64,000 bases of DNA from contig CAYVKP010000001.1 in the NCBI GenBank assembly GCA_964452165.1, positions 426,375-490,374 on the forward strand. The letters run 5' to 3'. Each line of letters opens with the position of its first letter. The stretch's first letter is position 1. A program made the translations under genes and the position numbers. Below, piece after piece: positions 11,575 to 39,424 of this stretch. The DNA is from an uncultured Gammaproteobacteria bacterium (GTDB taxonomy: Bacteria > Patescibacteriota > Microgenomatia > Levybacterales > GWA1-39-11). The notes under the pieces were generated by a model. It had not been told where the DNA came from and did not search any database. It saw only the letters and a program-made list of their open reading frames with translations.

Positions 11575-11677
11575 AATAAGCAAAGTATAGGTCAAAAAAA
11601 TGGCCAATACAACAATTTTCACGCAACTATTACGAATTGTTTACGCGTTTATTATTCTCTAAAACTAAGGTTAATAT

Positions 11678-21161: not shown

Positions 21162-22704
21162 ATACATTTATATTGTCCTCTTAATTTTATTTGTAATTCC
21201 GTCTTTCTGGTTCCTTGCAAAACCGGGTTTTATTACAACGGATGATGGTAATTGGATGATAATCCGCTTCTCAGCTTTTTATCAAGCTTTGCGAGACGGT
21301 CAATTTCCTGTTCGATTTCTAACCAGACTTAATTTTGGATATGGTTATCCGGTTGCAAACTTTTTATATCCCGCATTTATGTATCTTGCCGTTCCTTTTA
21401 AGATTGCCGGTTTGAGTTTTATCAACTGCATAAAAATAATAATAGGACTTAGTATCGTGTCCTCGGGACTATTTATGTTTTTATGGTTGAAACGCTTTTT
21501 TGATGAAGTGAGTTGTTTTTTCGCAAGTCTTTTTTATGTTTACGCCCCGTATCATCTCTACGACCTGTCAAAAAGAGGTTCTGTTGGTGAATTGCTCTCT
21601 CTCGCGGTTTTCCCGTTTGTCTTGTGGCAAGTAGAAAGAGAAGATTTAGTATTATCATCCTTGGGATTGGCACTGCTTATCGTATCTCATAACACCCTGG
21701 CCATTCTGTTCGTTTTAGCAATTATCCTCTATATGATTGGGTCTTTATATTCTCAAAAGAATAAGAAAAAGCTTTTAGACTTTTACAAGAAAACCTTACT
21801 TTTCGGCTTTGGAATTTCTGCTTTTTTCTCCCTGCCCGCGATACTTGAACTGGGCAATACGGTTTTCTCAAAAACTCACATATCCGACTTCAACACGTAT
21901 TTTGCAGACTACAATTTAATAGGAATAACAACGTTTATTATTATTCTTGTTGCGGCGGGGCTTTTAGTAAAAAACAATTTACTTAGAAAACACAAAATGA
22001 CAGTCGTTTTTATAATTGTTGCATTATTTTGTATTTTCCTCGCGTCTTCATTTAGTGCGCCTTTTTGGGAATTTCTTCCCGTGTCGTTTATACAATTTCC
22101 ATTCCGTCTTTTATCACTCGCGCTTATTTGTGTTGCTTTTCTTCTGGCTTTTTCTCTTTCTCAAATCCCAATTAAGTTTAGAATTGGTGCAGGAGTTCTT
22201 CTTGTCATCGCTACAATGTATTTTTCAAAAGATTATTTATTGCCCAAAAATTTTAATCTTCAAGACGATAGTTTTTATTCCACAAACGAAGCAACAACTA
22301 CAGTAATGGACGAATATATGCCAAGGTGGGTTGCAAAAAAACCAAGTAGCCATTTCGAAAATAAGGTTGATGTGGTAAAAGGCGAAGGACAAGTACAAAA
22401 TATCACCTACAATGCTGATAAAATATCATTTGATTATGTATCATCATCTCCCGCGCAAGTCAGAATAAACACAATTTATTATCCCGGGTGGCAAGCATAT
22501 TCCGATAATCAACCCAAAGCCATTTTCTATGATAATGACCAAGGAACCATGGACTTAAAACTGGGGGGCAAAGACCAAAAGATTACTCTTGTTTTTGGTG
22601 AAACTCAAGAAAGATTGCTAGCGGACGCAATTTCAATCATGTCTCTACTCGCATTGTCTACATTGGTATACAAGAATAAAATACTCAATTTGTTTAAGAA
22701 ATGA
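21151..22704 (+). CDS. Short YfhO-related polytopic membrane protein, 'family A' paralog 1 (517 aa)
   Basis: It shares motifs with four paralogs: first-loop 'TDDGNW...FPVRF...NFGYGYPVANFLYP', 'YAPYHLYDLSKRGSVGE', 'FQFPFR', and a C-terminal 'YYPGWQAY.D'. Confidence 0.7.
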   Translation: MKNKYIYIVLLILFVIPSFWFLAKPGFITTDDGNWMIIRFSAFYQALRDGQFPVRFLTRLNFGYGYPVANFLYPAFMYLAVPFKIAGLSFINCIKIIIGLSIVSSGLFMFLWLKRFFDEVSCFFASLFYVYAPYHLYDLSKRGSVGELLSLAVFPFVLWQVEREDLVLSSLGLALLIVSHNTLAILFVLAIILYMIGSLYSQKNKKKLLDFYKKTLLFGFGISAFFSLPAILELGNTVFSKTHISDFNTYFADYNLIGITTFIIILVAAGLLVKNNLLRKHKMTVVFIIVALFCIFLASSFSAPFWEFLPVSFIQFPFRLLSLALICVAFLLAFSLSQIPIKFRIGAGVLLVIATMYFSKDYLLPKNFNLQDDSFYSTNEATTTVMDEYMPRWVAKKPSSHFENKVDVVKGEGQVQNITYNADKISFDYVSSSPAQVRINTIYYPGWQAYSDNQPKAIFYDNDQGTMDLKLGGKDQKITLVFGETQERLLADAISIMSLLALSTLVYKNKILNLFKK

Positions 22705-24233
22705 AAATAAAACAATTCCTAGTAGATAATTGGACATTAATTGTTTATCTTGTCATCTCAATTATTGCAGTCTTGCCGTTCCTGGGAAGCGGTTTTTTCC
22801 AAATTCATGACGATGTCCAAGTGGCACGAGTTTTTGAGATGGCCAAAAGTTTGTCGGCTGGTATGTTTCCTGCCCGGTGGGTTCCCGATCTTGGATACGG
22901 GGCAGGCTATCCCATCTTCAACTTCTATTCTGTCCTACCTTATTATATAGGCGGTTTTTTGACCACCTTAGGTTTGAATGCACTGTTTTCAACGAAAGTG
23001 GTATTTGTTGCAGGGATCATCGGGTCCGGTGTATCCATGTATTTTTTGACAAAATCCTTCTTTGGAAGAGTTCCTGCTCTTGTTTCGGCGATCATTTACT
23101 TATACTTTCCCTACCACGCCGTTAACATCTACGTCAGAGGAGATCTGGCAGAGCTTTTTGCCTATCTCTTCCTTCCATTAGTATTTTTATCTTTCTATAA
23201 AATTCACGAGATTGGAAGGTATACGAAATTCTATATTGCTTTGGGATCGACGTCTATTGCAGCAGTAATCATCTCCCACAATTTATCCTTCCTAATGCTT
23301 TTGCCTTTCATGGTAATTTTTATTTTAGTATCGGTTATTACCGGGAAAGAAAGAAAACAACTATTCGTTTCTTACGCTGCCGTTATTTTTTTGGCGTTTT
23401 TGATTTCCGCATTTTATGCTATCCCCGCTGCCCTTGAAGCCAGATTTACCAACGTAACCTCAGTTTTGGGGGGTGGCTCAGATCCTCGTGATCACTTCAT
23501 TTGTATTTCTCAATTGTGGGATAGTCCATGGGGATTTGGTGGTTCTGCTCCGGGATGCGCTGATGGAATAAGTTTTAAGCTGGGGAAGTCTAATGTGATA
23601 TTTGCATTGCTTGGAATAATCCTCGCTTTGATTAGCACTAAAAGATTGAAAGAAAAAAAGTTCGTGGTCCTATCATCCATAGGATTTCTGGTCTTCTCAA
23701 TTTTTATGCTCCTCCCACTCTCATTACCAATTTGGATTCTGCCCCTTATGGCGTTTCTTCAGTTTCCGTGGAGATTCCTTAATTTTGTGGGGCTTTTCAC
23801 AAGTATTCTAATAGGCTTTGCGGTTTGGGAGATCAGAAGTTTGAGAAATAGAAAATTTCTCATTGTGATATCGGTTTTGATTATCGGGGCAACACTTCTT
23901 CTTAATGCCAAGCTCTTTGCTCCGCAGAGAGTCTTTAGCAGAGCATCTTCCTACTATACAAATACAAATTATCTTAATTGGTCTGCATCAAAAATTTCAG
24001 ATGAGTATATGCCTAAAGGCTTTAAAAGTCCTTCATCTCCGGGTGCGGTTAAGACATCGCTTTCAGGTATACGTCAGGACAGCTTTTATAAAAAAGATTC
24101 TGTTAGTGGCTCATTTAAATTCGAGTCTGGAGAAACCTTACTGGAGAAGGCTTCGAATTTGGTGAGTTTGGTTGGAGTTGTAGCTTTAGTAATTGTTATA
24201 ATAAGTAAACCATATGGCAAAAATACTTCCTGA
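22701..24233 (+). CDS. Short YfhO-related polytopic membrane protein, family A paralog 2 (510 aa)
   Basis: 'HDDVQVARVFEMAKSL..GMFPARWVPDLGYGAGYPIFNFY', 'YFPYHAVNIYVRGDLAE' and 'FLQFPWRF'. It overlaps the upstream gene as ATGA. Confidence 0.7.
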   Translation: MKIKQFLVDNWTLIVYLVISIIAVLPFLGSGFFQIHDDVQVARVFEMAKSLSAGMFPARWVPDLGYGAGYPIFNFYSVLPYYIGGFLTTLGLNALFSTKVVFVAGIIGSGVSMYFLTKSFFGRVPALVSAIIYLYFPYHAVNIYVRGDLAELFAYLFLPLVFLSFYKIHEIGRYTKFYIALGSTSIAAVIISHNLSFLMLLPFMVIFILVSVITGKERKQLFVSYAAVIFLAFLISAFYAIPAALEARFTNVTSVLGGGSDPRDHFICISQLWDSPWGFGGSAPGCADGISFKLGKSNVIFALLGIILALISTKRLKEKKFVVLSSIGFLVFSIFMLLPLSLPIWILPLMAFLQFPWRFLNFVGLFTSILIGFAVWEIRSLRNRKFLIVISVLIIGATLLLNAKLFAPQRVFSRASSYYTNTNYLNWSASKISDEYMPKGFKSPSSPGAVKTSLSGIRQDSFYKKDSVSGSFKFESGETLLEKASNLVSLVGVVALVIVIISKPYGKNTS

Positions 24234-24933
24234 ATTATCCATATTTTTTCCTTTTTGGAACGAGGAAAAAAACATACGAGAAGTAGTTTTAAAAGCTTCT
24301 CAAGTCGCGCACGAAGTAGCTGAGAAATGGGAAATAATAATAGTTAATGATGGCTCTTCTGACAACACGCTTGGCGAGGCAGAAGCTCTTGTTAAATCGG
24401 AAAAAAACATTCGAATTATTTCTCACACGCCTAACAGGGGATACGGAGCTGCAATTAAGGAAGGTCTTGAGAAGTCAAAATACAACTACGTGGTATTTAC
24501 CGATGGGGACGGGCAATTTGATTTTTCCGAGGTGGATAAGTTTGTAGAAAATATTGAAGATGTAGATATGGTCATTGGTTACAGGAAAAAAAGGAGAGAC
24601 CACAATCTAGCAAAAAGACTTATGCTTATGAACTTACTTAAAGCTTGGGATTTTGTCCTCTTTGGGTTTTTGTTTCGCGATATAGACTGCGGTTTTAAAA
24701 TGTTCACACGAAGAGCAATTGATGAAATATCTCCATTACGAAGTGAGGGCGCAATGATAACAACCGAAATTCTTGCAAAGGCTGTAAGGAAGAAACTAAA
24801 AATTAAGCAGGTAGAAGTAAGTCACTACCAAAGAAAATTCGGAAAGCAAACCGGCGCAAATCTCCCCGTTATCGTGCGAGCTATACTCGAGAGTTTGATT
24901 CTTTGGTCCGATATACACAACAAGAGAATATAA
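24214..24933 (+). CDS. GT2 family glycosyltransferase (DPM1-like)
   Basis: 'LSIFFPFWNEEKNI...EIIIVNDGSSDNT...VVFTDGDGQFD' are GT-A DxD motifs. Confidence 0.8.
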   Translation: MAKILPELSIFFPFWNEEKNIREVVLKASQVAHEVAEKWEIIIVNDGSSDNTLGEAEALVKSEKNIRIISHTPNRGYGAAIKEGLEKSKYNYVVFTDGDGQFDFSEVDKFVENIEDVDMVIGYRKKRRDHNLAKRLMLMNLLKAWDFVLFGFLFRDIDCGFKMFTRRAIDEISPLRSEGAMITTEILAKAVRKKLKIKQVEVSHYQRKFGKQTGANLPVIVRAILESLILWSDIHNKRI

Positions 24934-24936
24934 CGA

Positions 24937-26379
24937 ATGGAAAAGTCGAGTTCTTCAATAGTAGAGCAGACGGTTAAAGGGATTATTGCGTTTATCTCTC
25001 GTACGGTCATACTCGATATTCTAACCGTTGGCACATCGATAGTAATATTTAGCATTTTTTCTGCGGCTCAAGTAGGAATATATACTGTTGTAATCGCAAT
25101 TCAAAGAGTAATAAGTTTTTTTACAGACTTTGGTTTTGGTGCAGCACTCGTTCAGAAAAAAGATGATTTAACCCGTGAAGATTTAAGGACGAGCTTTACT
25201 CTCCAGTCTTCTGTAACGGGTGCAATATTTTTGGCTATACTTTTATTGAAATCTCCGATCTCCTCATTGCTCAGATTGAACGGTGACGCATACGGCCTTC
25301 TGCTCGCCTTGGTATTTACGATTTTTCTTTCATCTTTCAAAGTTATTCCGTCAATTCTACTTGAGCGAAAAATCCATTTTCATAAATTAGTTATACCGCA
25401 ACTCGTCGAATCAGTCGTTTTTAATGTCATACTTCTAATTCTTGCCCTAAGACACTTCGGGATTGCAGCCTACACTTGGGCGTTTCTGATATCAAGCATT
25501 GCAAGCGTCCCATTCTATTATATTGTTTCTCCGTGGGAAATTGGTCTCGGCGTACATAAGGCAGCTTTAGTCCATTTAAAGTTCGGCCTTCAATTTCAGG
25601 CAAAAAATGTTTTAGCAACCATCAAGGACGATTTCATGACTGTTGTTTTGAGGTGGTTTTTAAGTTTTTCCCAGATCGGATTTATAGGCTTTGCTCAGAG
25701 CCTCGCCTTTTACCCTTATCGTTATTTTGTTGACAGTGTGACTCGTGTAACATTCTCAACATATGCTCGTTTTCAAAATGATAAAAAAATGCTCACGGCA
25801 TCAGTGGAAAAATCGCTCTTCTTTGTTTCTCTAGTAATGTTTCCGCTATTGACAGGTCTTATAATTGTCGGGCCTTATCTGATCAGATATTTTCCTCATT
25901 GGAATGGTAAATGGGATGCTGCCTATATGTCTCTGGTGTTTTTTTCGCTTAACGCCATGGTGTCCTCGCTTTCGGGGATACTCATCAATGTTTTGGACTC
26001 CAACGGCAAAGTTAAGTGGACCTTACAGCTTATGGTTATTTGGACGATCATGATCTGGGTTGTTACTCCTATTATGATATTGCTCTTCAGTTTCAATGGT
26101 GTTGCTATTGCTTCCTTCCTGGTTACTCTTACGATCCTATACACGGTCAGTCTCGTCCATAAAATTATCGACTTCAAGTTTTGGACGAGTATTTATCAAC
26201 CTATCGTGGCTGCTGTTATAATGGGAATAATTACTTATGTCCTGTGTGTAGTATTGGTCAAGACTTTTGTGGCACTTATTATTGTGAGTCTTGTTTGTGG
26301 AGGAATATATTTTGGGATAATGTACGTATTCAAGGGTAAAGAGGTCATAAGCGATGTAAGAAAGTTAATCAAAAAATGA
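24937..26379 (+). CDS. wzx: Wzx/RfbX-type oligosaccharide flippase (MOP superfamily)
   Basis: It has 12–14 TM segments and an N-terminus 'SRTVILDILTVGTSIVIFSIFSAAQVGIYTVVIAIQ' typical of polysaccharide biosynthesis proteins. Confidence 0.7.
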   Translation: MEKSSSSIVEQTVKGIIAFISRTVILDILTVGTSIVIFSIFSAAQVGIYTVVIAIQRVISFFTDFGFGAALVQKKDDLTREDLRTSFTLQSSVTGAIFLAILLLKSPISSLLRLNGDAYGLLLALVFTIFLSSFKVIPSILLERKIHFHKLVIPQLVESVVFNVILLILALRHFGIAAYTWAFLISSIASVPFYYIVSPWEIGLGVHKAALVHLKFGLQFQAKNVLATIKDDFMTVVLRWFLSFSQIGFIGFAQSLAFYPYRYFVDSVTRVTFSTYARFQNDKKMLTASVEKSLFFVSLVMFPLLTGLIIVGPYLIRYFPHWNGKWDAAYMSLVFFSLNAMVSSLSGILINVLDSNGKVKWTLQLMVIWTIMIWVVTPIMILLFSFNGVAIASFLVTLTILYTVSLVHKIIDFKFWTSIYQPIVAAVIMGIITYVLCVVLVKTFVALIIVSLVCGGIYFGIMYVFKGKEVISDVRKLIKK

Positions 26380-27311
26380 ACAAGATCAGGCTATCAGTCG
26401 TAATATCCGCTTATAATGAAGAGAAGAATCTTGAAGGTTGCTTAAGGTCGGTAGAAAAGTTGGCAGACGAAATAATAGTAGTCGATAACTCTTCCCTCGA
26501 TGATACGGCCAAGATTGCTAAAAAATATACAGATAAGGTCTATCAACAAAAAAACGATCCACGTAAAATTGATGAACAAAAAAATTTTGGATTCTCAAAA
26601 GCTACTGGAGACTGGATTTTCTCTATTGATGCGGATGAGAAAGTTACCTTAGAGCTTGGCTCAGAAATTAAAAAATCACTGGACAAAGACAAGAACGCCG
26701 ATGGATATTGGATCCCCAGAAAAAACATAATATTCGGAAAATGGATTAAGAGTGATATGTGGTGGCCCGACTACCAGCTCAAGCTTTTTAGAAAAGGTGC
26801 TGGAAGTTTTAGAAAGAACGATGTTCATAAGGCCCTTGAGGTTATTGGCGCTACGCAAAAATTGGAGAATCCTCTTCTCCATAATAACTATTCAACAATC
26901 TCTCAATATCTCGTTAAGCTCAATAATTATACGGATATTGAAGCTGAGAATATAACTTCCGGCAACTATACCTTTTCATGGCTAGATGCTGTAAGATTTC
27001 CGGTTGATGACTTTGTAAAGACGTTCTTTTTACAAAAGGGGTATGGGGACGGTTTGCACGGTTTGGTTTTAAGCATGCTGCAAGCATTTTACATGGAAGT
27101 GGTATTTGCAAAAATTTGGGAAAAACATAAGTTTGTAGAAATAGAAAATCAAAACTTTCTCCAGGAAGTTAATAAGGAACTTAAAAAATCTAAAGATAAA
27201 GTAAAGTATTGGTTTACAACTGCTTTGATCCGGAATTCAAACAATCCCATTAAGAAAATTGCACTTCGAGCTATCCGAAAAATAACCACCTCAGACCTTA
27301 AGAAATCGTAA
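26376..27311 (+). CDS. GT2 family glycosyltransferase (WaaE/KdtX-like 'ADEIIVVD' subfamily)
   Basis: 'LSVVISAYNEEKNLEGCLRSVEKLADEIIVVDNSSLDDT...FSIDADE'. Paralogs lie at 35030 and 51454. Confidence 0.8.
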   Translation: MNKIRLSVVISAYNEEKNLEGCLRSVEKLADEIIVVDNSSLDDTAKIAKKYTDKVYQQKNDPRKIDEQKNFGFSKATGDWIFSIDADEKVTLELGSEIKKSLDKDKNADGYWIPRKNIIFGKWIKSDMWWPDYQLKLFRKGAGSFRKNDVHKALEVIGATQKLENPLLHNNYSTISQYLVKLNNYTDIEAENITSGNYTFSWLDAVRFPVDDFVKTFFLQKGYGDGLHGLVLSMLQAFYMEVVFAKIWEKHKFVEIENQNFLQEVNKELKKSKDKVKYWFTTALIRNSNNPIKKIALRAIRKITTSDLKKS

Positions 27312-27313
27312 TA

Positions 27314-28225
27314 ATGAAAAAGGTTTTTGTAGTCATCTTAAATTTCAATGGCTTTGAGGATACCATTGCATGCGTAAAGTCTCTTCAGAAGATGGAAAAA
27401 AACGAGACACTGGAGATAGTGGTTATTGATAACGCCTCAAACAACGAATCCGTTGAGGAGATTAATAAAGCTCTGAGCGGCATAGTTTTTCTCAGGAATA
27501 AAGAAAATCTAGGGTTTTCCGGAGGTTGTAACGTGGGAATGCGTTATGCTATGGATAATGGAGCCGATTTCATAATGCTTCTCAATAACGATACTTTGGT
27601 AGATAAGAATTTACTAGACAATCTATTGAACACGTTTGGCCAAAGCGAAAATATTGGTGGAGTAGTCCCCAAAATATATTTTGCAAAAGGTCACGAATTT
27701 CACAAAGACAAATATAAAAAAAACGAACTCGGAAAAGTCATTTGGTATGCCGGAGGAAAAATGGACTGGAAAAACCTGATAGGAGAAAATATTGGAGTTG
27801 ATCAAGTGGATCATGGACAGTTTGATGTAGAGGCTGAAACTGAACTTGCAACAGGGTGTTGCTTTCTCATTAAAACGGAAGCTCTAAAAAAGGTGGGGGT
27901 TTTTGATGAAAGATATTATCTCTATTACGAAGATGCAGACCTCACGCAAAGGATGAAGAAGGCGGGTATGCGTGTCGTTTACAATCCCAAGGGTATAGTT
28001 TGGCATCTTAATGCAGGATCCGGTGGCGGTTCGGGATCAACTCTTCAGGACTATTACATAACACGCAACAGGCTTTTATTTGGATCCGCATATGCTTCGA
28101 TAAGAACTAAAATTGCTCTTCTTCGTGAGAGTCTCAAAATTTTCAAAGAGGGAAGGCAGTGGCAAAAAAAGGGAGTGGTGGATTTCTATCTTGGACGCTT
28201 TGGAAAAGGAAGCTTTCCAATTTAA
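27314..28225 (+). CDS. GT2 family glycosyltransferase (rhamnosyl/WbbL-like)
   Basis: 'VFVVILNFNGFEDTIACVKSL...VVIDNASNNES...LLNNDT'. Its C-terminal end is duplicated at 31007–31102. Confidence 0.8.
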   Translation: MKKVFVVILNFNGFEDTIACVKSLQKMEKNETLEIVVIDNASNNESVEEINKALSGIVFLRNKENLGFSGGCNVGMRYAMDNGADFIMLLNNDTLVDKNLLDNLLNTFGQSENIGGVVPKIYFAKGHEFHKDKYKKNELGKVIWYAGGKMDWKNLIGENIGVDQVDHGQFDVEAETELATGCCFLIKTEALKKVGVFDERYYLYYEDADLTQRMKKAGMRVVYNPKGIVWHLNAGSGGGSGSTLQDYYITRNRLLFGSAYASIRTKIALLRESLKIFKEGRQWQKKGVVDFYLGRFGKGSFPI

Positions 28226-28265
28226 AGTTAAGTGGTAAAATGCAGATATTATAAAGGTAACTAGT

Positions 28266-28838
28266 ATGAAGAATAATCTAAAAGACTTTCATCATTATAA
28301 AGGCGATGATCTCTCTCCTGCAGAGAAAATTGAAAGAAGAATTTTAGAGTTAATTATAGCTTCGAAAAATCCGGACGAAGAGAGGGAAGACTCTAAGATA
28401 TTTGAGCTGATGCATGCTTCGGGTTGTATGCAGATTGCTAGAATTTTAGCTCAGAAGAGAAATTTGGATGTAGAAATGTGTGAAATTGCGGCAATGCTAC
28501 ATGACATTTATGTAATTATTAACGGAACATATAAAAATCACGGTAAAGAAGGTTCTCCAATTGCTAGGCAAGTATTGGAAGAAGTTGGTGGTTTTAGCGA
28601 AGATCAAATCATTACAATTACTCAAGCAGTAGCCCACCACAGTGAGAAAGAAGTTTATTCAGATAATCCATACATGGAATTAGTAAAAGACGTTGACGTC
28701 TTCGATTGCTCTTTATATAAAAACGCTGAGGGATTTTATAGAATTCATAAGCCAGAACCAATTTTTAATGAATACGTTAAAAGAATTAAAAAAGTCAGAG
28801 AAGAACTTGGTTTGCTTCCGGGGGAGATATTTAGATAA
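28266..28838 (+). CDS. HD-domain metal-dependent phosphohydrolase
   Basis: 'HASGCMQIARILA...AAMLHDI...AHHSEKE' gives the H...HD...H...D spacing typical of HD domains. Confidence 0.65.
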   Translation: MKNNLKDFHHYKGDDLSPAEKIERRILELIIASKNPDEEREDSKIFELMHASGCMQIARILAQKRNLDVEMCEIAAMLHDIYVIINGTYKNHGKEGSPIARQVLEEVGGFSEDQIITITQAVAHHSEKEVYSDNPYMELVKDVDVFDCSLYKNAEGFYRIHKPEPIFNEYVKRIKKVREELGLLPGEIFR

Positions 28839-30161
28839 ATGCAAGATAAATGGTTTAGGTGGGAAAGAGAGGCGGCAATCCATCTTTTATTTCCGACTCT
28901 TGAAGGTTCGATGAAGCCCCTCGAGAAATTTACGGGTTTTGGATTTCCTACCACGATTTTAATCTTTAAAAATGGATTAGTTACTTGGTGTATGAAGGAT
29001 GCTGAGTTCTATGGATTGGGCTCTAAGCTTCTTGAGATTTACAAAGATCAAGAGAAAGAACGGGAGATGATAGAAGAGATGACTAGAAGATTAAAGGTCT
29101 TGGGGAGAATCGAGAAGGAAATAGATAAAATAGCTCTTTCGGGATTAAAAAATGGACAGCTAGCTGAGTTACATTCCAGGCTTCACGATGCTTTCGTAAA
29201 TTATTACGGAATAGGAGCAATACAAGAACCGCTTGCTATGCAAGCAGAAATAGAATTAAAAGAGGTTTCTGAATTAAATAGTGATGAGATAGCCCATCTT
29301 GTTGTTCCAGATAAACTTTCCTATATTCAGGAAGCTGACACTTATCTTTTAGATACAAAAGACATCGATGGTTTTATAAATAAGTATTTTTGGATAGATA
29401 ATAACTATTCCCAAACTAAAGTATTGTCCCAAGAGGAAGTTCAGAAAAGACTTTCCAGTATTAAGCCGGTTAAGTCCTCAGATAACAGTTCCCAAATTGC
29501 AGATTTAAATCCGGAATCAAAGAGGTTAGTAGAGTTATTAAAAAACTTTGCTAATTATCAGGATGATAGAAAAGCAAACATCTTAGTGTATTTGCATTAT
29601 CTAGAAGTTTTATTGAGAGAAATTGGAAGAAGAGCAAGCATTTCCATAAATGTAATGAGAGATACCTTTCCCCACGAAATAAAAGATATATTGGATAGAA
29701 ATGTTACTGAAGAGTTCATAAGTAAAAGAAGAGAGAAGTGTTTTGTGGTTTGGGAAGAAAATGCGGAAAAACCTTCAATTTTGGTTGGCGAAGAAACAAA
29801 AGAATGGGAGAAGATGTTAAGTTTACAAACAAAAGGTCCCCGTGTTGTTAAGGGTAACTGTGCCTCTAAAGGAATAATAACGGGTAAAGTTAGGGTGCTA
29901 TTAAATGCTAGCGAAAATGATAAATTAGAAGATGGAGAAGTTTTAGTCACATTTATGACCTCACCTGATTTCATGAGTGCGGTTAGAAAGTGTTCCGCAA
30001 TTGTCACTAACTATGGGGGTATTACATCTCACGCGGCAATTATCTCAAGGGAGTTAAGAATACCTTGCGTAGTCGGGACTAAAAATGCAACTGAAGTTTT
30101 AAAGACGGGTGACGTGGTGGAAGTAAATGCTGACAAGGGAGAGATAAGAATTCTATCATAA
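28839..30161 (+). CDS. PEP-utilising-enzyme mobile (phospho-histidine swivel) domain protein with a ~330-aa N-terminal domain of unknown, putatively substrate-binding function
   Basis: The C-terminal 'VTNYGGITSHAAIISRELRIPCVVGT' is the canonical GGxTSHAAI swivel-domain motif with the phospho-acceptor His. Its start codon abuts the HD gene stop. Confidence 0.8.
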   Translation: MQDKWFRWEREAAIHLLFPTLEGSMKPLEKFTGFGFPTTILIFKNGLVTWCMKDAEFYGLGSKLLEIYKDQEKEREMIEEMTRRLKVLGRIEKEIDKIALSGLKNGQLAELHSRLHDAFVNYYGIGAIQEPLAMQAEIELKEVSELNSDEIAHLVVPDKLSYIQEADTYLLDTKDIDGFINKYFWIDNNYSQTKVLSQEEVQKRLSSIKPVKSSDNSSQIADLNPESKRLVELLKNFANYQDDRKANILVYLHYLEVLLREIGRRASISINVMRDTFPHEIKDILDRNVTEEFISKRREKCFVVWEENAEKPSILVGEETKEWEKMLSLQTKGPRVVKGNCASKGIITGKVRVLLNASENDKLEDGEVLVTFMTSPDFMSAVRKCSAIVTNYGGITSHAAIISRELRIPCVVGTKNATEVLKTGDVVEVNADKGEIRILS

Positions 30162-30162
30162 A

Positions 30163-30996
30163 ATGGGATTTATCAAAAAATTTGGCGAAATATCCAAGGG
30201 AGACACAAAACAGGTAGGTGGTAAAGGCGCCTCTTTGGGAGAAATGGTAAAAGCGGGTATTCAAGTTCCCTCCGGTTTTGTTATAACTGCTCAAGCTCAC
30301 CAAAAATTTGTCAACGACTCTCTACCGGTTAATGTGAGAAAAGGAATTTTAAAAGCCTTTGATGAACTTGATGCCCAACAAGTTGCGGTTAGATCGTCAG
30401 CCATTGCAGAGGATTCATCTCAGGCTTCGTGGGCCGGACAATTAGAAACCTATCTTAATGTTTCAAGAGATGATTTAATAAATAAAGTTAGGGATTGTTG
30501 GAGTTCTGTTAAATCAGAAAGAGCTTTATCTTATGCGGGTGGACAGGACTTGGCAGAAGATGATTTATTCGTAGCTGTTGTCGTACAAAAAATGATTGAT
30601 AGTAAAACTTCGGGAGTAATGTTTACTGTCAATCCGATTACAAAAGACACAAATGAAGTTATGATCGAAGCAGGCTTTGGGTTGGGTGAGCTATTAGTTC
30701 AAGGATTAATTACGCCTGATAACTTTATCATTAATAAGAATACTTTCGAAATCAAAAGTAAAGATGTTCAAGCTCAAGATACTATGTTGGTATTTCAAGA
30801 GGGAGAAAATAAAGAAATCCCCGTCCCATCCGATAAGAGAAATGAACAAAAAGTTTCAGATGAAAACATCAGGGAATTAGTTAATATGGCTATAAAAATA
30901 GAAACACATTATGGAAAACCTCAGGACATAGAGTGGGCAATTGACGATCAAAATCGAATCTGGATTTTACAGTCAAGACCAATAACGACACTTTGA
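30163..30996 (+). CDS. Pyruvate phosphate dikinase / PEP synthase N-terminal ATP-grasp (PPDK_N) domain protein, stand-alone
   Basis: 'VGGKGASLGEMVKAGIQVPSGFVITAQA' and the C-terminal 'QDIEWAIDDQNRIWILQSRPIT' are PPDK_N signatures. It begins 1 nt after the upstream stop. Confidence 0.8.
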   Translation: MGFIKKFGEISKGDTKQVGGKGASLGEMVKAGIQVPSGFVITAQAHQKFVNDSLPVNVRKGILKAFDELDAQQVAVRSSAIAEDSSQASWAGQLETYLNVSRDDLINKVRDCWSSVKSERALSYAGGQDLAEDDLFVAVVVQKMIDSKTSGVMFTVNPITKDTNEVMIEAGFGLGELLVQGLITPDNFIINKNTFEIKSKDVQAQDTMLVFQEGENKEIPVPSDKRNEQKVSDENIRELVNMAIKIETHYGKPQDIEWAIDDQNRIWILQSRPITTL

Positions 30997-31006
30997 AGCT
31001 AAATTT

Positions 31007-31102
31007 ATGCAATTATTAAGTAAGTTAAAGATATTTGAGAACCAGGCGGGGGTTCTGGATTTTTACTTGGGTAGATTTGGAAGAGGAAGCTTTCCAATTT
31101 AA
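31007..31102 (+). pseudogene. 31-codon remnant homologous to the 3' end of the GT2 gene 27314–28225 (MQLLSKLKIFENQAGVLDFYLGRFGRGSFPI*)
   Basis: It aligns with '...LKIFKEGRQWQKKGVVDFYLGRFGKGSFPI*' at 28130–28225. The last 24 nt, including the stop, are identical. The next gene's ATG follows directly. Confidence 0.6.
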
Positions 31103-32749
31103 ATGGTAAGGAAATATTTAGGTTTTATACTTATTGTAGTCTTAGGCTTTGTGCCTTTAATTCCTTTGTTGCACGCAGGTTTGCCGATTACTCACGATGG
31201 GCAAGACCACGTAGCAAGAATTGCCAATTTCTATACTTCACTCTCCGAAGGAATTGTTATTCCGCGTTGGGCAGGTAATCTCAACTGGGGATACGGTCAC
31301 CCAATCTTAATGTTTTTATACCCCCTCTCATCTTACAGCGCTTCCCTGTTTCATTTTTTGGGCTTTTCATTCGTTGACAGTTTAAAGATAGTCTTCGGGT
31401 TAACTTTCATACTTAGTGGAATTTTTATGTACATGTGGGTCAGAGAGTTTTTGGGGGAAGAAGCAGGAGTTGTCAGCGGATTCTTATATATGTTTGCCCC
31501 CTACAGATTTGTAGATCTCTATGTTAGAGGAGCGATCGGCGAACACGTTGCGTTTATCTTTCCGCCTTTAATAGCTTATTTTCTTTTGAAAATCTCAACT
31601 TCCAAAAAACCTAATGGAGTTTATTTTGCAGGAGCGTCGATGTCGCTGGCCGGATTAATTCTTGCACACAATGCTATAAGCTTAATGTTTCTTCCTTTTA
31701 TAATTTTCTACGGAGTATATCTTCTCTTTCTATCGAAGAGAAGATCAGTCATTTTAGAATACGCTGCTGTTCTCTTTTTGGGATTTGCTCTATCCGCTTT
31801 TTTCTGGGTGCCGGCCTTCATGGAGGGAAAGTATACTTTGCGGGATATCGTAACTGAAGGAATCACTCTTTCTAGATTTGTGAACCTTAATAGTCTATTG
31901 TACGGCCCGTGGAATTATGGACAGACCGGCCAGTTTAGCTTACAGGTGGGAATCCTGTCTTGGTTGGCAGTCATTGTCTCGCCAGTTCTGCTCGTCAGAA
32001 AATTAAAAGCGGAAAAGAAGACTCGAGCTCTTTACCTCCTTGCGTTGATTTACTTCGCTGGCAGTCTTTTCATAATGCTTCCTATCTCGGCTCCGCTTTG
32101 GAAAGCAATAGGTACTCTTCAGAAATTTCAATTTCCGTGGAGATTTCTTTCAGTTTCTGTTTTTGCTGCAGCACTTATTGGTGCCATTGTGGCATCGGTT
32201 TTTAAGAAGTCAGCCAGATTATTAATGTTTGGAACAATAGTTCTATCATTAGTTTTAACTCATACTTACTGGATACCTAAAGGATACTTAGTTCGCCCCG
32301 AGTCTTTCTACAGCGGAATTTATAATGGCACAACAGATACCGGTGAAAGCGCGCCTATCTGGTCAGTCCGATTTATGGAGAGAAGACCAAAGGCCCGGGC
32401 TGAGATAATAGACGGCACCGCGCAAATAAAATACATACTGCGGAATTCAATTCATCACGCATACGAAGTTGACGCTAAAGACAGAATTAGAGTCAAAGAG
32501 AATACATTGTATTTTCCCGGTTGGAAAGTATACGTCGATGGAAAGGAATATCAAGACATCCAATTTCAAGATCCGGTAAATCGCGGGCTAATGACTTTTT
32601 TTGTATCCCCGGGGAATCATAGGATCGATGTCGTTTTTACCGATACCAAAATAAGAAAAATTTCAAACTACATTTCGTTAATCAGTTTATTTGTGATGTT
32701 GGCTTTCTCTGGAGTTTTTATCAGAAAATATGCAAAAGATACTAAATAA
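31103..32749 (+). CDS. Short YfhO-related polytopic membrane protein, family A paralog 3 (548 aa)
   Basis: 'THDGQDHVARIANFY...PRWAGNLNWGYGHPILMFLYP', 'FAPYRFVDLYVRGAIGE', 'FQFPWRF' and a C-terminal 'LYFPGWKVYVDGKEY'. Confidence 0.7.
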   Translation: MVRKYLGFILIVVLGFVPLIPLLHAGLPITHDGQDHVARIANFYTSLSEGIVIPRWAGNLNWGYGHPILMFLYPLSSYSASLFHFLGFSFVDSLKIVFGLTFILSGIFMYMWVREFLGEEAGVVSGFLYMFAPYRFVDLYVRGAIGEHVAFIFPPLIAYFLLKISTSKKPNGVYFAGASMSLAGLILAHNAISLMFLPFIIFYGVYLLFLSKRRSVILEYAAVLFLGFALSAFFWVPAFMEGKYTLRDIVTEGITLSRFVNLNSLLYGPWNYGQTGQFSLQVGILSWLAVIVSPVLLVRKLKAEKKTRALYLLALIYFAGSLFIMLPISAPLWKAIGTLQKFQFPWRFLSVSVFAAALIGAIVASVFKKSARLLMFGTIVLSLVLTHTYWIPKGYLVRPESFYSGIYNGTTDTGESAPIWSVRFMERRPKARAEIIDGTAQIKYILRNSIHHAYEVDAKDRIRVKENTLYFPGWKVYVDGKEYQDIQFQDPVNRGLMTFFVSPGNHRIDVVFTDTKIRKISNYISLISLFVMLAFSGVFIRKYAKDTK

Positions 32750-35054
32750 ATTTTGGCCAATATTGTTTATTATTACGCTTTGGTTCGTTTTTTCGAGCCC
32801 GTATTTAATCCGCCACAAAATACCTTTTCCTTCAACATATCTTGCTTCCAATTTTGCCCCGTGGAATTCTTACGGATTATATATGGGTCCTGTAAAAAAC
32901 GGGGCTGCACCGGATGTAATTGATCAAATATATCCTTGGAAAAAATTAGTTATAGATTCTTACAAAAGAGGAGTTTTTCCGTTATGGAATTCCTACGCTT
33001 TCTCCGGCACCCCGCTTCTTGCTAACTATCAGTCGGCCGCCCTTACTCCGGTTAACCTCCTTTATTTCGTACTACCGTTTATTGATGCTTGGAGTCTTCA
33101 GGTTCTTGCTCAGCCATTATTGGCCGCCCTGTTCATGTATTTTTTCGCTCGCGCCTTAAAAAGAAGCCAAGCAGCAGCACTTATCTCATCAGTTGCCTTC
33201 ATGTTCTGTGGATTTATAACAACCTGGGGACTATATGGAACGTTAGGCTACGCAATACTATTTCTTCCTTTGGCACTTTTTTCAATCGAAAAAATTTATG
33301 AAACGAAAAAATGGCACTACAAACTGCTTCTGGCACTGTCGGTTCCACTGTCTTTTTTCAGCGGACATTTCCAAACCAGTCTTTATTTTCTAGCTCTAGT
33401 ATTTGCCTATGGCATATTCAAATACATTGAAAAAAAAGACTTGAGACTTTTTATTGAAAATATTTTATTTGTTGTTTTTGGTATCTTACTTTGTTCTCCT
33501 CAGCTTTTACCGTCAATAGAGCTGTATTTCGCATCTGTCAGAAGTGGAATATTTATGAAAACCGAAGTTATTCCATGGGCATATTTGCCAACTTTCTTAT
33601 CACCTGATTTTTTTGGAAATCCTGTCACCCGCAACGATTGGTTTGGACACTACGCCGAGTGGAATGGGTATCTTGGTTTGGTTCCTTTAATTTTGTCATT
33701 TTATAGCTTGAAGAAGAGGAGTGCTCATATAATTTTCTTCTTATGTTCGACGATTATAGTTTTTCTTCTCGCATTTCAAACGCCCATTCTGGATTTACTC
33801 ATTGCTCTAAAAATTCCCGTTATTTCAACGAGCGCTGCGAGTAGAATAATAGTTTTGGCGAGTTTTTCAATCGCTGTTCTCGCGGGATTCGGACTGGACT
33901 ATATCCTTGCCGACATAAAAGATAAGAAGACGAAACACATCTTTGTGTTGGTTGGTATTTTCGCGACGACATTTACAATTCTTTGGGCCATGGTCCTAGG
34001 CAAGCTTCTAATTCCCACAGATAAAGTCTCAATAGCTTTTTCAAATCTCAAACTACCATCGATTTCTTTTGCAATATTTGCGATCTTACTATTAATAGCT
34101 GCTGTGATTAAAAACAAGAAATTCGTCTTTGTCGTTTGTGCGGTTTTAATTATGTTAACGGGCTTTGACTTAACAAGATTTGCAACAAAATGGCAACCCT
34201 TTGATCCGAAGAACCTGCTTTATCCTGAGGTTCCCGTTTCAAAATTTCTTTCTAGAGTAGATTCCAAAGACCGTGTCTTCGGCAATTTTGGACAAGAGTT
34301 GCCTCTAATGTTCGGGGTTTCAGGTACCGAAGGTTACGACCCTCTTTACATAGGCCGTTATGGTGAATTTTCGAATGCGGCACAGGACGGTAATTTTCAT
34401 AGAGCCGCGAGATCTGTTGCGATGGTATCCAAAAACGGCATGTTCACAGAAAAAATCATTGATTTTCTTGGGGTCAAATATATAATCCACAAAGTTTCGG
34501 ATGGACACGCGGTTTGGGCGTTTCCCATATGGGATTATCCTGCCGATCAGTTCAAGGTAGCTTATGAAGATAACAATATTAATGTGTTTGAAAATAGGAA
34601 TGCTTTTCCGAAAGCTTTTTTGGTGGGAAGATATAAGGTAGTTGCGGATAATCACATGATTCTTCGAACTATTTTCAAAAAGGATACTAATCTTCGAGAT
34701 GTTGCAATTCTCGAGAGTAATCCAGGCCTTGATCTTTCGGGTGGCACAACAGGAAGCGTAAATATTACGAAATACGAGCCTAATAAGATAGAAATAAAAG
34801 CCAGCGTTAAGGATTCGTCTCTGTTGGTGCTGTCGGATCCATTTTATCCGGGCTGGAAAGCAGACGTTGATGGAAAACCAGCCTCAATATACAGAGCAGA
34901 CTATGCGTTTCGCGCTGTCTATCTGCCAAAAGGCACACACGAGGTAACGTTTACTTATGATCCGGATAGTTTTAAAATTGGTTTAGCTCTCGCACTTCTT
35001 GGCGTTTTAGGGGTTGGGGGGACGGCTTTATGGAAACAAAAATATCAGTCTTAA
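32730..35054 (+). CDS. YfhO-family GT-C membrane protein (774 aa)
   Basis: 'FPLWNSYAFSGTPLLANYQSAALTPVN' and the C-terminal 'FYPGWKADVDGKPASIYRADYAFRAVYLPKGTHEVTFTYDP'. Confidence 0.8.
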   Translation: MQKILNKFWPILFIITLWFVFSSPYLIRHKIPFPSTYLASNFAPWNSYGLYMGPVKNGAAPDVIDQIYPWKKLVIDSYKRGVFPLWNSYAFSGTPLLANYQSAALTPVNLLYFVLPFIDAWSLQVLAQPLLAALFMYFFARALKRSQAAALISSVAFMFCGFITTWGLYGTLGYAILFLPLALFSIEKIYETKKWHYKLLLALSVPLSFFSGHFQTSLYFLALVFAYGIFKYIEKKDLRLFIENILFVVFGILLCSPQLLPSIELYFASVRSGIFMKTEVIPWAYLPTFLSPDFFGNPVTRNDWFGHYAEWNGYLGLVPLILSFYSLKKRSAHIIFFLCSTIIVFLLAFQTPILDLLIALKIPVISTSAASRIIVLASFSIAVLAGFGLDYILADIKDKKTKHIFVLVGIFATTFTILWAMVLGKLLIPTDKVSIAFSNLKLPSISFAIFAILLLIAAVIKNKKFVFVVCAVLIMLTGFDLTRFATKWQPFDPKNLLYPEVPVSKFLSRVDSKDRVFGNFGQELPLMFGVSGTEGYDPLYIGRYGEFSNAAQDGNFHRAARSVAMVSKNGMFTEKIIDFLGVKYIIHKVSDGHAVWAFPIWDYPADQFKVAYEDNNINVFENRNAFPKAFLVGRYKVVADNHMILRTIFKKDTNLRDVAILESNPGLDLSGGTTGSVNITKYEPNKIEIKASVKDSSLLVLSDPFYPGWKADVDGKPASIYRADYAFRAVYLPKGTHEVTFTYDPDSFKIGLALALLGVLGVGGTALWKQKYQS

Positions 35055-35779
35055 TTATTTCTAAAAACGAAGCGGATGTAATTGGAGATGCAATAAAATC
35101 AGTTAAAGACTTTGCCGATGAAGTTATTGTGGTTGATGATTCAACCGATGAGACTCCCAAAATCGCCAAAAAGCTGGGTGCAAAGGTTACCCACAATACT
35201 TTCAACAATTTTGCAGATCAAAGAAACCTGGCAGCAACATTAGCCGCGAATGAGTGGATATTTTATCTCGATTCCGACGAGCGTGTCACTCAGGATTTTA
35301 TAAAAGAGCTAGAGAGAAATATTTTAGCTTTCAATAGCTCTCAGGATATTGCCGGTTTTTATATAAGGAGAAAAACTTTTTTTTACGGTCGGGATTGGGG
35401 ATTTGTAGACCGCGTTCAAAGAGTATTTAAAAAAGGAAAATTAAAAAGTTGGCGGGGAGTTGTACATGAGACACCCGAGGTTGAGGGAAGACTCGAGACA
35501 ATTCAATCTCCAATAGAGCATTTTACACATCGCAATTTTGAACAAATGATATCAAAGACTAACGAATGGTCTGAGTTTGAGGCGGAGCTGAGGCGCAAAA
35601 CAAATCATCCAAAGATGAATTTTTTTCGCTTTGTTCGCGTAATGGCGACAGGATTTACCTCTTCTTATTTTAAAGAGGGAGGATGGAAGAACGGGACGGC
35701 AGGTGTTATAGAAGGTATCTACCAGGCTTTTTCAATGTTTATAACCTACGCAAAACTTTGGGAGAAACAAGATAAATAA
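35030..35779 (+). CDS. GT2 family glycosyltransferase (WaaE/KdtX-like 'ADEVIVVD' subfamily)
   Basis: 'ISVLIISKNEADVIGDAIKSVKDFADEVIVVDDSTDETPKIAKKLGAKV...YLDSDE'. Confidence 0.8.
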   Translation: METKISVLIISKNEADVIGDAIKSVKDFADEVIVVDDSTDETPKIAKKLGAKVTHNTFNNFADQRNLAATLAANEWIFYLDSDERVTQDFIKELERNILAFNSSQDIAGFYIRRKTFFYGRDWGFVDRVQRVFKKGKLKSWRGVVHETPEVEGRLETIQSPIEHFTHRNFEQMISKTNEWSEFEAELRRKTNHPKMNFFRFVRVMATGFTSSYFKEGGWKNGTAGVIEGIYQAFSMFITYAKLWEKQDK

Positions 35780-35780
35780 A

Positions 35781-36017
35781 CTATTTATTTTTTGAGGGAA
35801 TCCAGGAGCGGACTTCTTTTATGGTCAATCGCTTAGTTGCAAATTTAAACAAATAAACTAGCTCAACAATTCCTATCGTATTTAATACTAATATTGCGAC
35901 AAACCAATTTCTTTGTTTGAGATGTGCTGCTCGCCATAAGGCGATACCCTTAATGATCAGAGACCAAATGTATAAAACTAGGAGCAAATAGGGTGAGCCA
36001 GCAAACTGTGGATTCAT
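35781..36017 (-). CDS. Small 2-TM membrane protein (78 aa), possibly PLDc_N/DUF-type; the only minus-strand gene inside the glycosylation cluster
   Basis: 'LLLVLYIWSLIIKGIALWRAA...NWFVAILVLNTIGIVELVYLF' forms two hydrophobic helices with W/R/N between them. Confidence 0.4.
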   Translation of the reverse strand: MNPQFAGSPYLLLVLYIWSLIIKGIALWRAAHLKQRNWFVAILVLNTIGIVELVYLFKFATKRLTIKEVRSWIPSKNK

Positions 36018-36073
36018 AAGTCTAATTTAGCATAGCTTTTAAACATTATCAATAGCTGATAAAATAGGACAAT

Positions 36074-37144
36074 ATGAGAATTGGGATATACGACCCTTAT
36101 CTTGACGATATGGGAGGAGGGGAAAAATATATGCTGACCATTGCACAGTGTCTGTCCCAAGACCATTCTGTAACCCTTTTTTGGAATGATAAAGAGGACC
36201 TTACGGCTGCAGCCAAACGTTTCTCAATTGATACATCAAAGATTGGATTCTCAGCGAACATTTTCAGCTCTAATGTAGGTTTTTTGAAACGGGTTTTGGA
36301 GACAATAAAATATGACGCGATGGTCATTCTAAGCGACGGAAGTATTCCATTTGTTTTATCAAAAAAAATCTTTATCCATATTCAACAACCAATTCCCGGA
36401 GCAAAATCGAGCCTAAAGACCAAGATCAAACTTTCAAGAATATCAAAGGTTTTTTGTAATTCATATTTTTCAAAGAGCTTTGTTGACAAGCAGTTAGGGG
36501 TAGATAGTGTTGTGGTTTATCCGCCGGTTAAATTATTCCCTAAGAAATTAAAAAAAGAAAATATCATTTTGCATGTTGGCAGATTCAGAGCAAGAAACAT
36601 AGGTGTGTCAGACTATAAAAAACAAGATGTCATGGTTGATGCATTTAAAAAAATGGTAAAAAAGGGATTTAAGGGTTGGAGATTCATACTGGCTGTAAGT
36701 GTAAACGCCGAAGAAGAGAGCGCTTTTGAGGAATTTAAGAAAAAAACTAAAAACATGCCGATCGAATTTTATATTAATAAATCAAATGAGGATCTTTGGG
36801 ACCTATATTCTAAAGCCAAGATTTATTGGCACGCCTCAGGTTTTGGAGAAAATCTTGAAGAGCACCCCGAGTACGCAGAGCATTTTGGGATTTCAACGGT
36901 TGAGGCCATGGGTGCGGGAGCTGTTCCCGTAGTGTTCAATGCGGGTGGACAGAAGGAGATTGTTGAGAACGGAGTCAGTGGATTGGTATGGGACAGTGTA
37001 GGAGAACTTGAAGAAAAAACGCAAATGCTCTCAAAGGAAAAATTAATTCTTGAAAAAATGGCGATTGAGGCAAAGAAAAGAGCCAAAGATTTTGAAGGAA
37101 ACAGATTTTGTGATGAGATAAAACGACTTATTGAAAATGGTTGA
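36074..37144 (+). CDS. GT4 family (GT-B fold) glycosyltransferase
   Basis: 'EHFGISTVEAMGAGAVPVVFNAGGQKEIV' is the E-x7-E motif of retaining GT4 enzymes. Confidence 0.8.
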   Translation: MRIGIYDPYLDDMGGGEKYMLTIAQCLSQDHSVTLFWNDKEDLTAAAKRFSIDTSKIGFSANIFSSNVGFLKRVLETIKYDAMVILSDGSIPFVLSKKIFIHIQQPIPGAKSSLKTKIKLSRISKVFCNSYFSKSFVDKQLGVDSVVVYPPVKLFPKKLKKENIILHVGRFRARNIGVSDYKKQDVMVDAFKKMVKKGFKGWRFILAVSVNAEEESAFEEFKKKTKNMPIEFYINKSNEDLWDLYSKAKIYWHASGFGENLEEHPEYAEHFGISTVEAMGAGAVPVVFNAGGQKEIVENGVSGLVWDSVGELEEKTQMLSKEKLILEKMAIEAKKRAKDFEGNRFCDEIKRLIENG

Positions 37145-39422: not shown

Positions 39423-39424
39423 TA

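Follow-up and report, generated by a model that had tools for sequence, protein, structure and literature searches.

Two-component dikinases, exemplified by HpeHI, CreHI and PpsAB (phenylphosphate synthase), phosphorylate small molecules by means of a swiveling histidine that carries phosphate from ATP on the I component to the small molecule in the H component (PMC12167813). HpeH, CreH and PpsA share ~45% mutual identity. The catalytic motif of these systems, T/SxxGGxxxH, has been defined (PMC12167813), and the HpeH/HpeI pathways contain a dedicated HAD-type phosphatase, HpeD (PMC9618137). A different body of work concerns orphan 3′ gene ends, for which homology-facilitated illegitimate recombination, or C-terminal displacement, has been proposed in Rhs, contact-dependent inhibition (CDI) and type VI secretion system (T6SS) effector loci (PMC5361080). 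Here we describe a locus that resembles both. It lies in a low-GC (~38%) stretch of 64,000 nt (hereafter the window; contig CAYVKP010000001.1) from the genome of a Candidatus Levybacteria member of the Candidate Phyla Radiation (CPR; Microgenomates), where three genes encoding an HD hydrolase (HD), a swivel-His protein (SWIV) and an ATP-grasp protein (PPDK_N) interrupt a glycosylation cluster. At a probability of roughly 70%, we read the ~2.77-kb block at ~28226-31000 as a lineage-specific insertion of a small-molecule dikinase operon, gained by recombination with diverged Microgenomates DNA. The features on which this reading turns are listed below.

27314-28225, + strand: GT2c303, an intact GT2 glycosyltransferase of 303 aa (PF00535, PF13641), whose 3′ end is duplicated
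28171-28226, + strand: repeat copy A, 56 nt, found by direct-repeat search, 80% identical to copy B; homology at the protein level runs from ~28121
28207-28226 = 31084-31103, + strand: identical 20-nt tip AGGAAGCTTTCCAATTTAAA, a candidate crossover or conversion patch
28214-28241, + strand: promoter-like site (TTTCCA, 16 nt, TG-TAAAAT) from a promoter scan, a consensus match only
28226-28265, + strand: 40-nt spacer from the GT2 stop to the HD start, the probable left edge of the inserted block
28266-28838, + strand: HD-domain metal-dependent hydrolase of 190 aa, cassette gene 1 (PF01966, E 7.8e-10)
28839-30161, + strand: SWIV, 440 aa, with a helical substrate-binding domain and a C-terminal phosphohistidine swivel domain (residues 364-434; PF00391)
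30163-30996, + strand: PPDK_N ATP-grasp nucleotide-binding protein of 277 aa (PF01326, E 5.5e-87)
30997-31006, + strand: right junction, 10 nt from the PPDK_N stop to the stub ATG; GT2 homology restarts at ~31001 (tblastn)
31007-31102, + strand: orphan GT2 3′ end (the stub), a 31-codon open reading frame (ORF) of 96 nt encoding MQLLSKLKIFENQAGVLDFYLGRFGRGSFPI and a stop, 59% identical to the GT2 C-terminus
31048-31103, + strand: repeat copy B, 56 nt, found by direct-repeat search, 80% identical to copy A
31103-32749, + strand: PTPS_related membrane protein ("family A") of 548 aa (PF10131), whose ATG abuts the TAA of the stub

An earlier note on this DNA, made from the letters alone, had listed the GT2, HD, swivel-His and PPDK_N genes together with a 31-codon remnant abutting the family A start codon, and each of these frames lies exactly where it was placed there. 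Every one of the 63 positions that are invariant across an alignment of 37 orthologs is kept in GT2c303, G280, R281, W283 and Q284 among them, and the homologs of the protein carry the source labels Levybacteria or Patescibacteria. The stub at 31007-31102 has no gene model of its own in the contig's public annotation.

The earlier note proposed that related genomes be searched for the junction between GT2 and family A without the cassette. This junction is seen in the four close GT2 relatives (63-67% amino acid identity; L003, which is GCA_964651815.1, L124, L126 and L128), where GT2c303 is followed directly by PTPS_related with gaps of 18, 45, -4 and -4 nt, respectively. L128 has the gene order of the window across all eight cluster genes compared, except for the three cassette genes and the stub. 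Beyond PTPS_related, YfhO and GT2d249 follow in L003, L126 and L128 and GT1 in L003 and L128; the L124 contig ends inside a 679-aa ORF 3′ of PTPS_related. The PTPS_related gene is the ancestral downstream neighbor of GT2c303. The more distant loci are likewise free of the cassette, with no HD, swivel or PPDK_N gene after GT2c303 in any of a further 80 Microgenomates loci, each representing a species. Of these, the ~60 that reach far enough past the GT2 keep the core order GT2b311, GT2c303, GT2d249, GT1 (Flip480 upstream of GT2b311), and in about half of those ~60 a YfhO gene stands between GT2d249 and GT1.

A cassette-free relative with a collinear cluster (L003-L005, 65% GT2 identity) and the cassette-bearing genome (L001-L002) were assembled from the same two samples (SRR9179560, SRR9179562), so potential recombination partners coexist. 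L003 also has an extra 389-aa ORF with no Pfam match between PTPS_related and YfhO (10597-11766), which is absent in the window and in L128. The flippase gene (Polysacc_synt; window 24937-26379, L003 5630-7072, L128 5613-7070) is 81% identical between the window and L003 and 39% between the window and L128. Its neighbors are roughly equidistant (54-75%), and GT2b311 displays a smaller effect in the same direction (66% vs 50%). These identities indicate replacement of alleles inside the glycosylation cluster, in a locus that is clearly recombinogenic.

The duplication of the GT2 3′ end, which the earlier note had asked to be aligned, is a 56-nt direct repeat with 80% identity between its copies. 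A tblastn search of the stub peptide against the six frames of the window returned the GT2 C-terminus with E 7e-9 (59% identity over 34 aa) and a next best match of E 0.36. The tip consists of 19 nt through the stop and one further base; this 20-mer has exactly two occurrences in the window and 0 in 100 shuffles. The earlier statement that the last 24 nt are identical, stop included, was right as to a real shared end and too generous as to its length, the exact run being 20 nt because one A/G mismatch lies five bases further upstream. The C-terminal motif GRxWQKKGVxDFYLxRFGxGSFPI closes essentially all of 120 orthologs and is found in none of the other GT2s of the window, and by this signature the stub is assigned to the GT2c303 family, as a remnant, and not to another GT2. 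The stub keeps GVLDFYLGRFGRGSFPI, and a deletion of 5 codons has taken away the invariant G-R-x-W-Q segment; the stub therefore cannot be a functional piece of a glycosyltransferase. On the other side of the right junction, PPDK_N ends in ...QSRPITTL, the last six residues of which are the same in the L130 homolog. A GC-rich hairpin of 6 bp at 31038-31056, followed by an GGATTTTTAC tail (31038-31066, in the degraded part of the stub), looks terminator-like by consensus scan. A terminator or structured RNA in the stub was rejected, as folding of 30990-31110 gave z = -0.75, no better than shuffled sequence.

The two copies of the repeat are related unevenly along their length. Over 17 aligned sense codons, copy A and the stub show 7 synonymous differences, 2 conservative replacements (V/L, K/R) and 8 identical codons, and all differences are confined to the first 12 codons. 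In the middle 36 nt they are identical at 25/36 positions, with 9 of the 11 differences synonymous. The orthologs of L003, L124, L126 and L128 match one another at 24-29/36 positions in the same zone, and the stub matches orthologs in other genomes at up to 27/36, as close as its match to copy A. Over the last 19 nt, copy A and the stub agree at 19/19 positions and those four orthologs among themselves at 11-16/19; full 19-nt identity has P ~0.003 at the orthologs' mean per-site identity. If the 11 middle differences were random mutations, two or fewer amino acid changes would arise with P = 7.5e-5, and with P 0.05-0.14 if neutral change in the stub accounted for only 5-6 of them. At the level of sequence, then, the repeat is a mosaic of ortholog-level divergence and an identical 20-nt tip, and no recent duplication. 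The mosaic pattern favors recombination with a diverged allele over a fresh duplication, and the predominance of synonymous differences implies that both ends diverged as functional genes. The middle zone (P = 7.5e-5) accordingly places the two ends in different alleles or lineages; they appear to be orthologs of different lineages or old paralogs, with a recent common origin for the tip only.

The cassette itself is portable. When it was sought at other loci, a check that the earlier note had also put forward, the genes HD, SWIV and PPDK_N were found in the same order and tightly linked at >20 other loci in Daviesbacteria, Levybacteria and other Patescibacteria, with unrelated flanks. It follows MetK in L006, L094 and L095, and adjoins copper-resistance and TspO genes in L122 and UvrD and FemAB in L008. 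In L007, L104/L123 and L106 it stands directly after tRNA-Val(CAC), with the HD start within ~10 nt of the tRNA end (L007 6346-6418, L104 7349-7425, L106 6137-6211); this adjacency may be a hint of island-like integration, or plain conserved synteny. On the Levybacteria contig JACOXT010000003.1 the cassette (~34-50 kb, L008) and the glycosylation cluster (~325-346 kb, L010) lie ~290 kb apart. -10-like boxes are found just 5′ of HD, for example GTGGTATAAT in L006 and GTGGTAAAAT at 28231-28240, consensus matches only. Because such a box precedes HD whatever gene lies upstream, these matches suggest that the cassette brings its own promoter.

In L006 and L094 the cassette is followed at a short distance by a tRNA-Pro(GGG) gene. 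In L006 (8345-9102; Daviesbacteria) SWIV and PPDK_N are separated by two extra ORFs, of 154 aa (DUF7718) and 85 aa, and the PPDK_N protein is shorter (245 aa) and more divergent (56% identity). Directly 3′ of the cassette in L007 (9157-10066) are genes for a nucleotidyltransferase (PF04439/PF01909, aminoglycoside ANT type) and a GNAT acetyltransferase, by look an islet of drug-modifying enzymes. Multiple tandem SWIV paralogs accompany a single PPDK_N in L008 (7001-11626; 439, 465 and 355 aa) and L130 (737-3938; 440 and 350 aa), and L112, L114 and L115 likewise carry several SWIV genes. L111 (2620-10123) carries a tandem of five SWIV-like genes, and the locus as retrieved contains no ATP-grasp gene. 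Because two to three SWIV paralogs accompany one PPDK_N, these arrays suggest that one ATP-grasp subunit serves several substrate-specific swivel subunits. More distant triads of HD, SWIV and PPDK_N occur in L108 (701-3727) and L110 (4601-7627), in which SWIV is ~35% identical and 485 aa long. Some full-length SWIV homologs (P0208, P0231, P0236, P0237) are source-labeled as DPANN archaea (Diapherotrites, Nanoarchaeota); Pfam matches on the neighboring genes were not diagnostic of an archaeal origin for the L108 and L110 contigs.

No machinery for self-transfer was found with the block. It holds the three ORFs only, none of them an integrase or transposase, a repeat search found no boundary or terminal inverted repeats around it, and no relatives of the cassette were found on viral contigs. 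PADLOC defense-system models gave no match to the cassette, and its PHROGs matches were limited to a generic kinase and a family without assigned function. A self-mobile element, whether an insertion sequence or transposon, an integron cassette, a genomic island or a prophage, was rejected for lack of a recombinase, inverted repeats and viral homologs. On this question the tRNA-Val adjacency in three other loci is suggestive only.

In an inserted block of three genes, what does each protein do? The HD protein belongs to a family with 417 matches (65-82% identical among the 120 best listed), in which H50, H79-D80, H125 and D142/D144 are invariant. Its AlphaFold model has a pLDDT of 90.9, and fold searches returned generic HD hydrolases (2PQ7, YpgQ) with TM ~0.5. 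No specific function was assigned to it: the best PDB sequence match had E 0.06 and the fold matches were only generic members of the HD superfamily. The AF2 model of SWIV (pLDDT 88.9) has Listeria rifampin phosphotransferase (RPH) as all of its top six Foldseek matches (E 4e-13, TMq ~0.5), and these matches span the helical substrate domain and the swivel domain at 15-18% identity. Positions 223-439 of the SWIV family profile align to residues 648-866 of the Listeria enzyme. The SWIV motif TNYGGITSH398 conforms to T/SxxGGxxxH, with T390, G393, G394 and H398 invariant in 38 homologs. PPDK_N matches PEP synthase (8A8E, 8e-67), HpeI (9GOJ, 1.5e-51) and the ATP-grasp part of RPH (5HV6/5FBS, ~1e-47) in PDB sequence searches; 9GOJ is the HpeI structure of PMC12167813. 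The only Pfam matches in SWIV and PPDK_N are PF00391 and PF01326, and none of the cassette proteins matches the PEP/pyruvate TIM-barrel domain (PEP-utilizers_C). To judge from these sequence matches and predicted folds, the pair is a split homolog of RPH of the two-component dikinase type, in which SWIV would be the H component and PPDK_N the I component. The label "kinase/phosphatase cassette" given to the block earlier is thus fair at the domain level, for a split RPH-like dikinase and an HD hydrolase.

The cassette is split in the same way as HpeHI, CreHI and PpsAB and has the same gene order, a helical and His-swivel protein being followed by a separate ATP-grasp protein. It has the T/SxxGGxxxH motif and, like them, no PEP/pyruvate TIM barrel. 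A hydrolase partner is present, as HpeD is in the Hpe pathway, but here it is an HD protein and not a HAD/NagD-type phosphatase. SWIV, at 440 aa, has a much smaller substrate domain than HpeH (71.2 kDa; PMC9618137), and the 277-aa ATP-grasp protein contrasts with an HpeI of 40.6 kDa. Unlike the Hpe, Cre and Pps systems, no carboxylase or aromatic-catabolism genes are found near the cassette, its hosts are CPR bacteria of minimal metabolism, and in some relatives (L008, L130) there are several SWIV paralogs per ATP-grasp protein.

RPH (5HV1, 5FBS/T/U) has the same three modules and is the best structural match for SWIV and a strong one for PPDK_N, a likeness from which the cassette enzyme presumably shares its swiveling-His dikinase mechanism. 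However, the ~865 aa of RPH form one polypeptide that runs from ATP-grasp through RIF-binding to swivel, whereas the cassette enzyme is split and its ATP-grasp part is encoded last. Assignment as RPH was rejected on this division into two ORFs and on scores of 82.9 and 230 bits against the NF041857 cut-off of 999, and rifamycin as a substrate is unsupported. In sequence, the top-scoring matches are to PEP synthase/PPDK, at 229 bits for the ATP-grasp part (8A8E) and 131 bits for the swivel domain. This identity was also rejected, as there is no TIM barrel and TIGR01418 scores of 126 and 280 bits fall short of its cut-off of 740; across PEP synthase/PPDK the NCBIfam equivalog cut-offs are 598-740 bits and none was reached. 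Because the RPH and PEP synthase cut-offs were not reached and the proteins are much shorter than HpeH/HpeI, SWIV/PPDK_N is no named enzyme and probably forms a distinct, shorter two-component dikinase subfamily, set apart from HpeH/HpeI by the described sizes.

How might such an operon have come to lie here? Under our preferred reading, a block carrying the promoter-like spacer and HD, SWIV and PPDK_N would have entered the ancestral junction of GT2c303 and PTPS_related from a diverged Microgenomates lineage whose own cassette lay next to a 3′ end of GT2c303. Of the two GT2 3′ ends, one would have stayed with the intact gene and the other been left as a 96-nt orphan before PTPS_related. The locus has what a displaced 3′ end leaves behind, namely an intact gene, an inserted module, an orphan 3′ fragment of the same family and an empty site in relatives. 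As at Rhs, CDI and T6SS loci, a complete 3′ end has been kept, the module is new, there is no recombinase and relatives lack the module. It differs from them in that the displaced gene is a conserved glycosyltransferase and no polymorphic toxin, and in that both 3′ ends specify one conserved C-terminus in place of a choice of toxin domains; there is also one orphan and no array, and the GT2 ends have an identical 20-nt tip.

Two routes can be envisaged. In a Campbell-type event, a circular intermediate bearing a 96-nt GT2 3′ fragment, the spacer and the cassette would have integrated by a single crossover within the 20-nt tip. This predicts the pattern seen: left of the tip the copies differ, the tip is identical, and to its right the sequences are unrelated (donor spacer vs resident PTPS_related). 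Alternatively, by homology-facilitated illegitimate recombination or C-terminal displacement, an incoming GT2 and cassette would have replaced most of the resident GT2, whose own 3′ end would be the stub. The GT2c identity ratio is 0.94 vs 1.01-1.10 for most other genes compared, and against clade orthologs the middle 36 nt of copy A match at 17-21/36 and those of the stub at 19-26/36. There may thus be a weak lean, within noise, toward copy A as the outlying and foreign copy, which would favor displacement. Both measures being within noise, a decision on the foreign copy from identity ratios and 36-nt comparisons was rejected.

Several observations weigh against recombination with diverged DNA as we have described it. 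The main gap is the donor: GT2c303 followed immediately by HD was absent among the ~130 loci examined, and something other than GT2c303 precedes HD on the contigs that carry the nearest homologs of SWIV (L121) and of HD (L130). The identical tip favors the Campbell-type route and is left unexplained by displacement, and the weak signals as to the foreign copy disagree. Composition is no help: the GC content of the cassette is within the range of its flanks, and its synonymous codon usage is among the best fits to that of the window, more typical than average. The cassette GC3 values of 0.277, 0.281 and 0.317 include the two lowest of 48 ORFs and are ~1-2 standard deviations below the window mean of 0.351 (sd 0.032). 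The comparison of GC and codon usage with the flanks, suggested earlier as a check, gave no foreign mark and a GC3 only mildly low, and composition as a sign of foreign origin was rejected on the flank-like GC and typical codon usage. At the protein level the stub is a near-consensus C-terminus, and copy A is second of 120 family members in similarity to it; both have the rare LKIF motif, which is present in 2/120 members. Because of this shared motif and this rank, the source allele may have been fairly closely related, or paralogous. The window lineage also has no close database relative (best GT2 identity 68%), which leaves room for a wide range of insertion dates and for a tandem duplication private to this lineage.

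It is this last possibility that supplies an alternative, in which selection acted on two tandem GT2c303 paralogs as they diverged. The cassette would have inserted between these paralogs, or DNA would have been lost in the same event, with no more than the last 31 codons of the downstream one surviving. We consider this alternative unlikely, while noting that the synonymous-dominated divergence fits two copies that were functional genes for long, that the stub and copy A have in common the LKIF motif and an LGRFG variant, and that the cluster is rich in paralog arrays. Since the lineage is a long branch without a close sequenced relative (GT2 identity ≤68% to anything known), a private duplication could go unseen. 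Yet a second GT2c303-type copy beside the first is found in 0/4 close and 0/80 distant relatives, more steps are needed (duplication, long coexistence, insertion exactly between, and a deletion ending 10 nt after PPDK_N), and the abrupt rise in identity, from 69% to 100% on entering the tip, is left unexplained. The earlier note had offered both possibilities, an inserted segment with a replacement 3′ end and a paralog deleted to its stub; the former fits better and the latter less well. A third origin would be duplication in situ, the insertion itself having copied ~60-100 nt of its target, as a long target-site duplication or by replication template switching, with later drift. The direct repeats do bracket the insert exactly, and the tip and LKIF could be residues of common origin. 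Uniform decay would, however, be unlikely to leave a 31%-diverged middle beside 20 unchanged nt, in its middle zone the stub resembles foreign orthologs no less than copy A, and the excess of synonymous changes has the low probability given above (P = 7.5e-5 if all 11 differences are random, 0.05-0.14 if only 5-6 are neutral), so that this origin is very improbable. An assembly chimera, with the cassette mis-joined into the cluster at the short repeat, has to be considered, as the source is a metagenome-assembled genome and a repeat brackets the insert. Here two independent assemblies from different sequencing runs match window positions 24097-36225 and 26058-29607 with zero mismatches; L001 reproduces both cassette junctions and L002 the left one, and the exact repeat is only 20 nt long. 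We therefore regard a chimera as practically negligible. Recombination with diverged DNA is thus retained as the origin of the block, and its earlier description as a discrete module acquired horizontally or by recombination agrees with the empty sites, the portability of the cassette and the mosaic repeat.

The role of the acquired genes is a separate matter. By analogy with characterized dikinases, the ATP-grasp subunit would pyrophosphorylate His398 on the swivel domain, this domain would then pass phosphate to a small molecule bound in the helical domain, and the HD metal-dependent hydrolase would act in the same pathway. Phosphorylation of a small molecule (xenobiotic, antibiotic or metabolite) appears more likely than a part in glycan assembly, and the contexts with ANT and GNAT genes in L007 and copper resistance in L122 hint at an accessory or resistance role. 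Might the cassette instead be a selected part of the glycosylation pathway, adaptively placed and phosphorylating a sugar, glycan or lipid-linked intermediate? It is on the same strand as the cluster and tightly packed within it, and the plant glucan-water dikinase, which acts on starch, is a PPDK_N/swivel-type dikinase that shows glycan-acting members to exist. A further point in favor of a glycan role, and one that counts against our own interpretation, is that a different polysaccharide cluster (flippase, methyltransferase, GT, Wzy) lies a few kb downstream of the cassette in L007 and L123. Against this, 84 relatives have the orthologous cluster without the cassette, which argues against a core glycan role, and the genes beside the cassette elsewhere mostly have no link to glycans (MetK/ribosomal genes, copper resistance, UvrD). 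The nearest relative in structure has a small-molecule antibiotic as its ligand, and phenolics are the substrates of the characterized two-component homologs; a glycan role is doubtful on balance. A more ambitious proposal, which we hold only as a speculative one, is that HD/SWIV/PPDK_N forms an undescribed modular phosphorylation system of ultra-small bacteria. One ATP-grasp "charger" would serve interchangeable swivel subunits, HD would reset or process the product, and the promoter-bearing cassette, spread by short-patch homologous recombination, would have been captured here by a surface-glycan locus. Were this so, the cassette could phosphorylate a glycan or lipid-linked intermediate in this bacterium or protect it from a host-derived antibiotic.

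The surrounding glycosylation cluster (GT2, GT1, flippase, and many PTPS_related and YfhO membrane-protein paralogs) fills most of the + strand from ~15 to 64 kb. The membrane-protein paralogs, presumed to be GT-C-like, are extremely expanded on this single strand, at 17209-24233, 31103-35054, 37131-50132 and 56631-58271. The expansion comprises five PTPS_related-type and four YfhO-type proteins and a tandem trio of 550-563 aa (45087-50132).

The case is neat but fairly ordinary: the cassette belongs to a known enzyme class, and current understanding is not overturned. Its value lies in an unusually clean record of operon gain without mobile-element machinery in an episymbiotic, genome-reduced CPR bacterium, which combines co-occurring relatives with the site empty, a gene end left orphaned and a 20-nt patch of identity possibly marking a crossover. 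The locus could be used to illustrate how Patescibacteria gain genes by recombination. A second point of interest is a compact triad conserved across Microgenomates, a short two-component RPH-like dikinase with an HD hydrolase. Microgenomates have been reported to hold the most rph-like genes among CPR genomes (PMC8651080), and the triad may explain some of these "rph-like" resistance calls.

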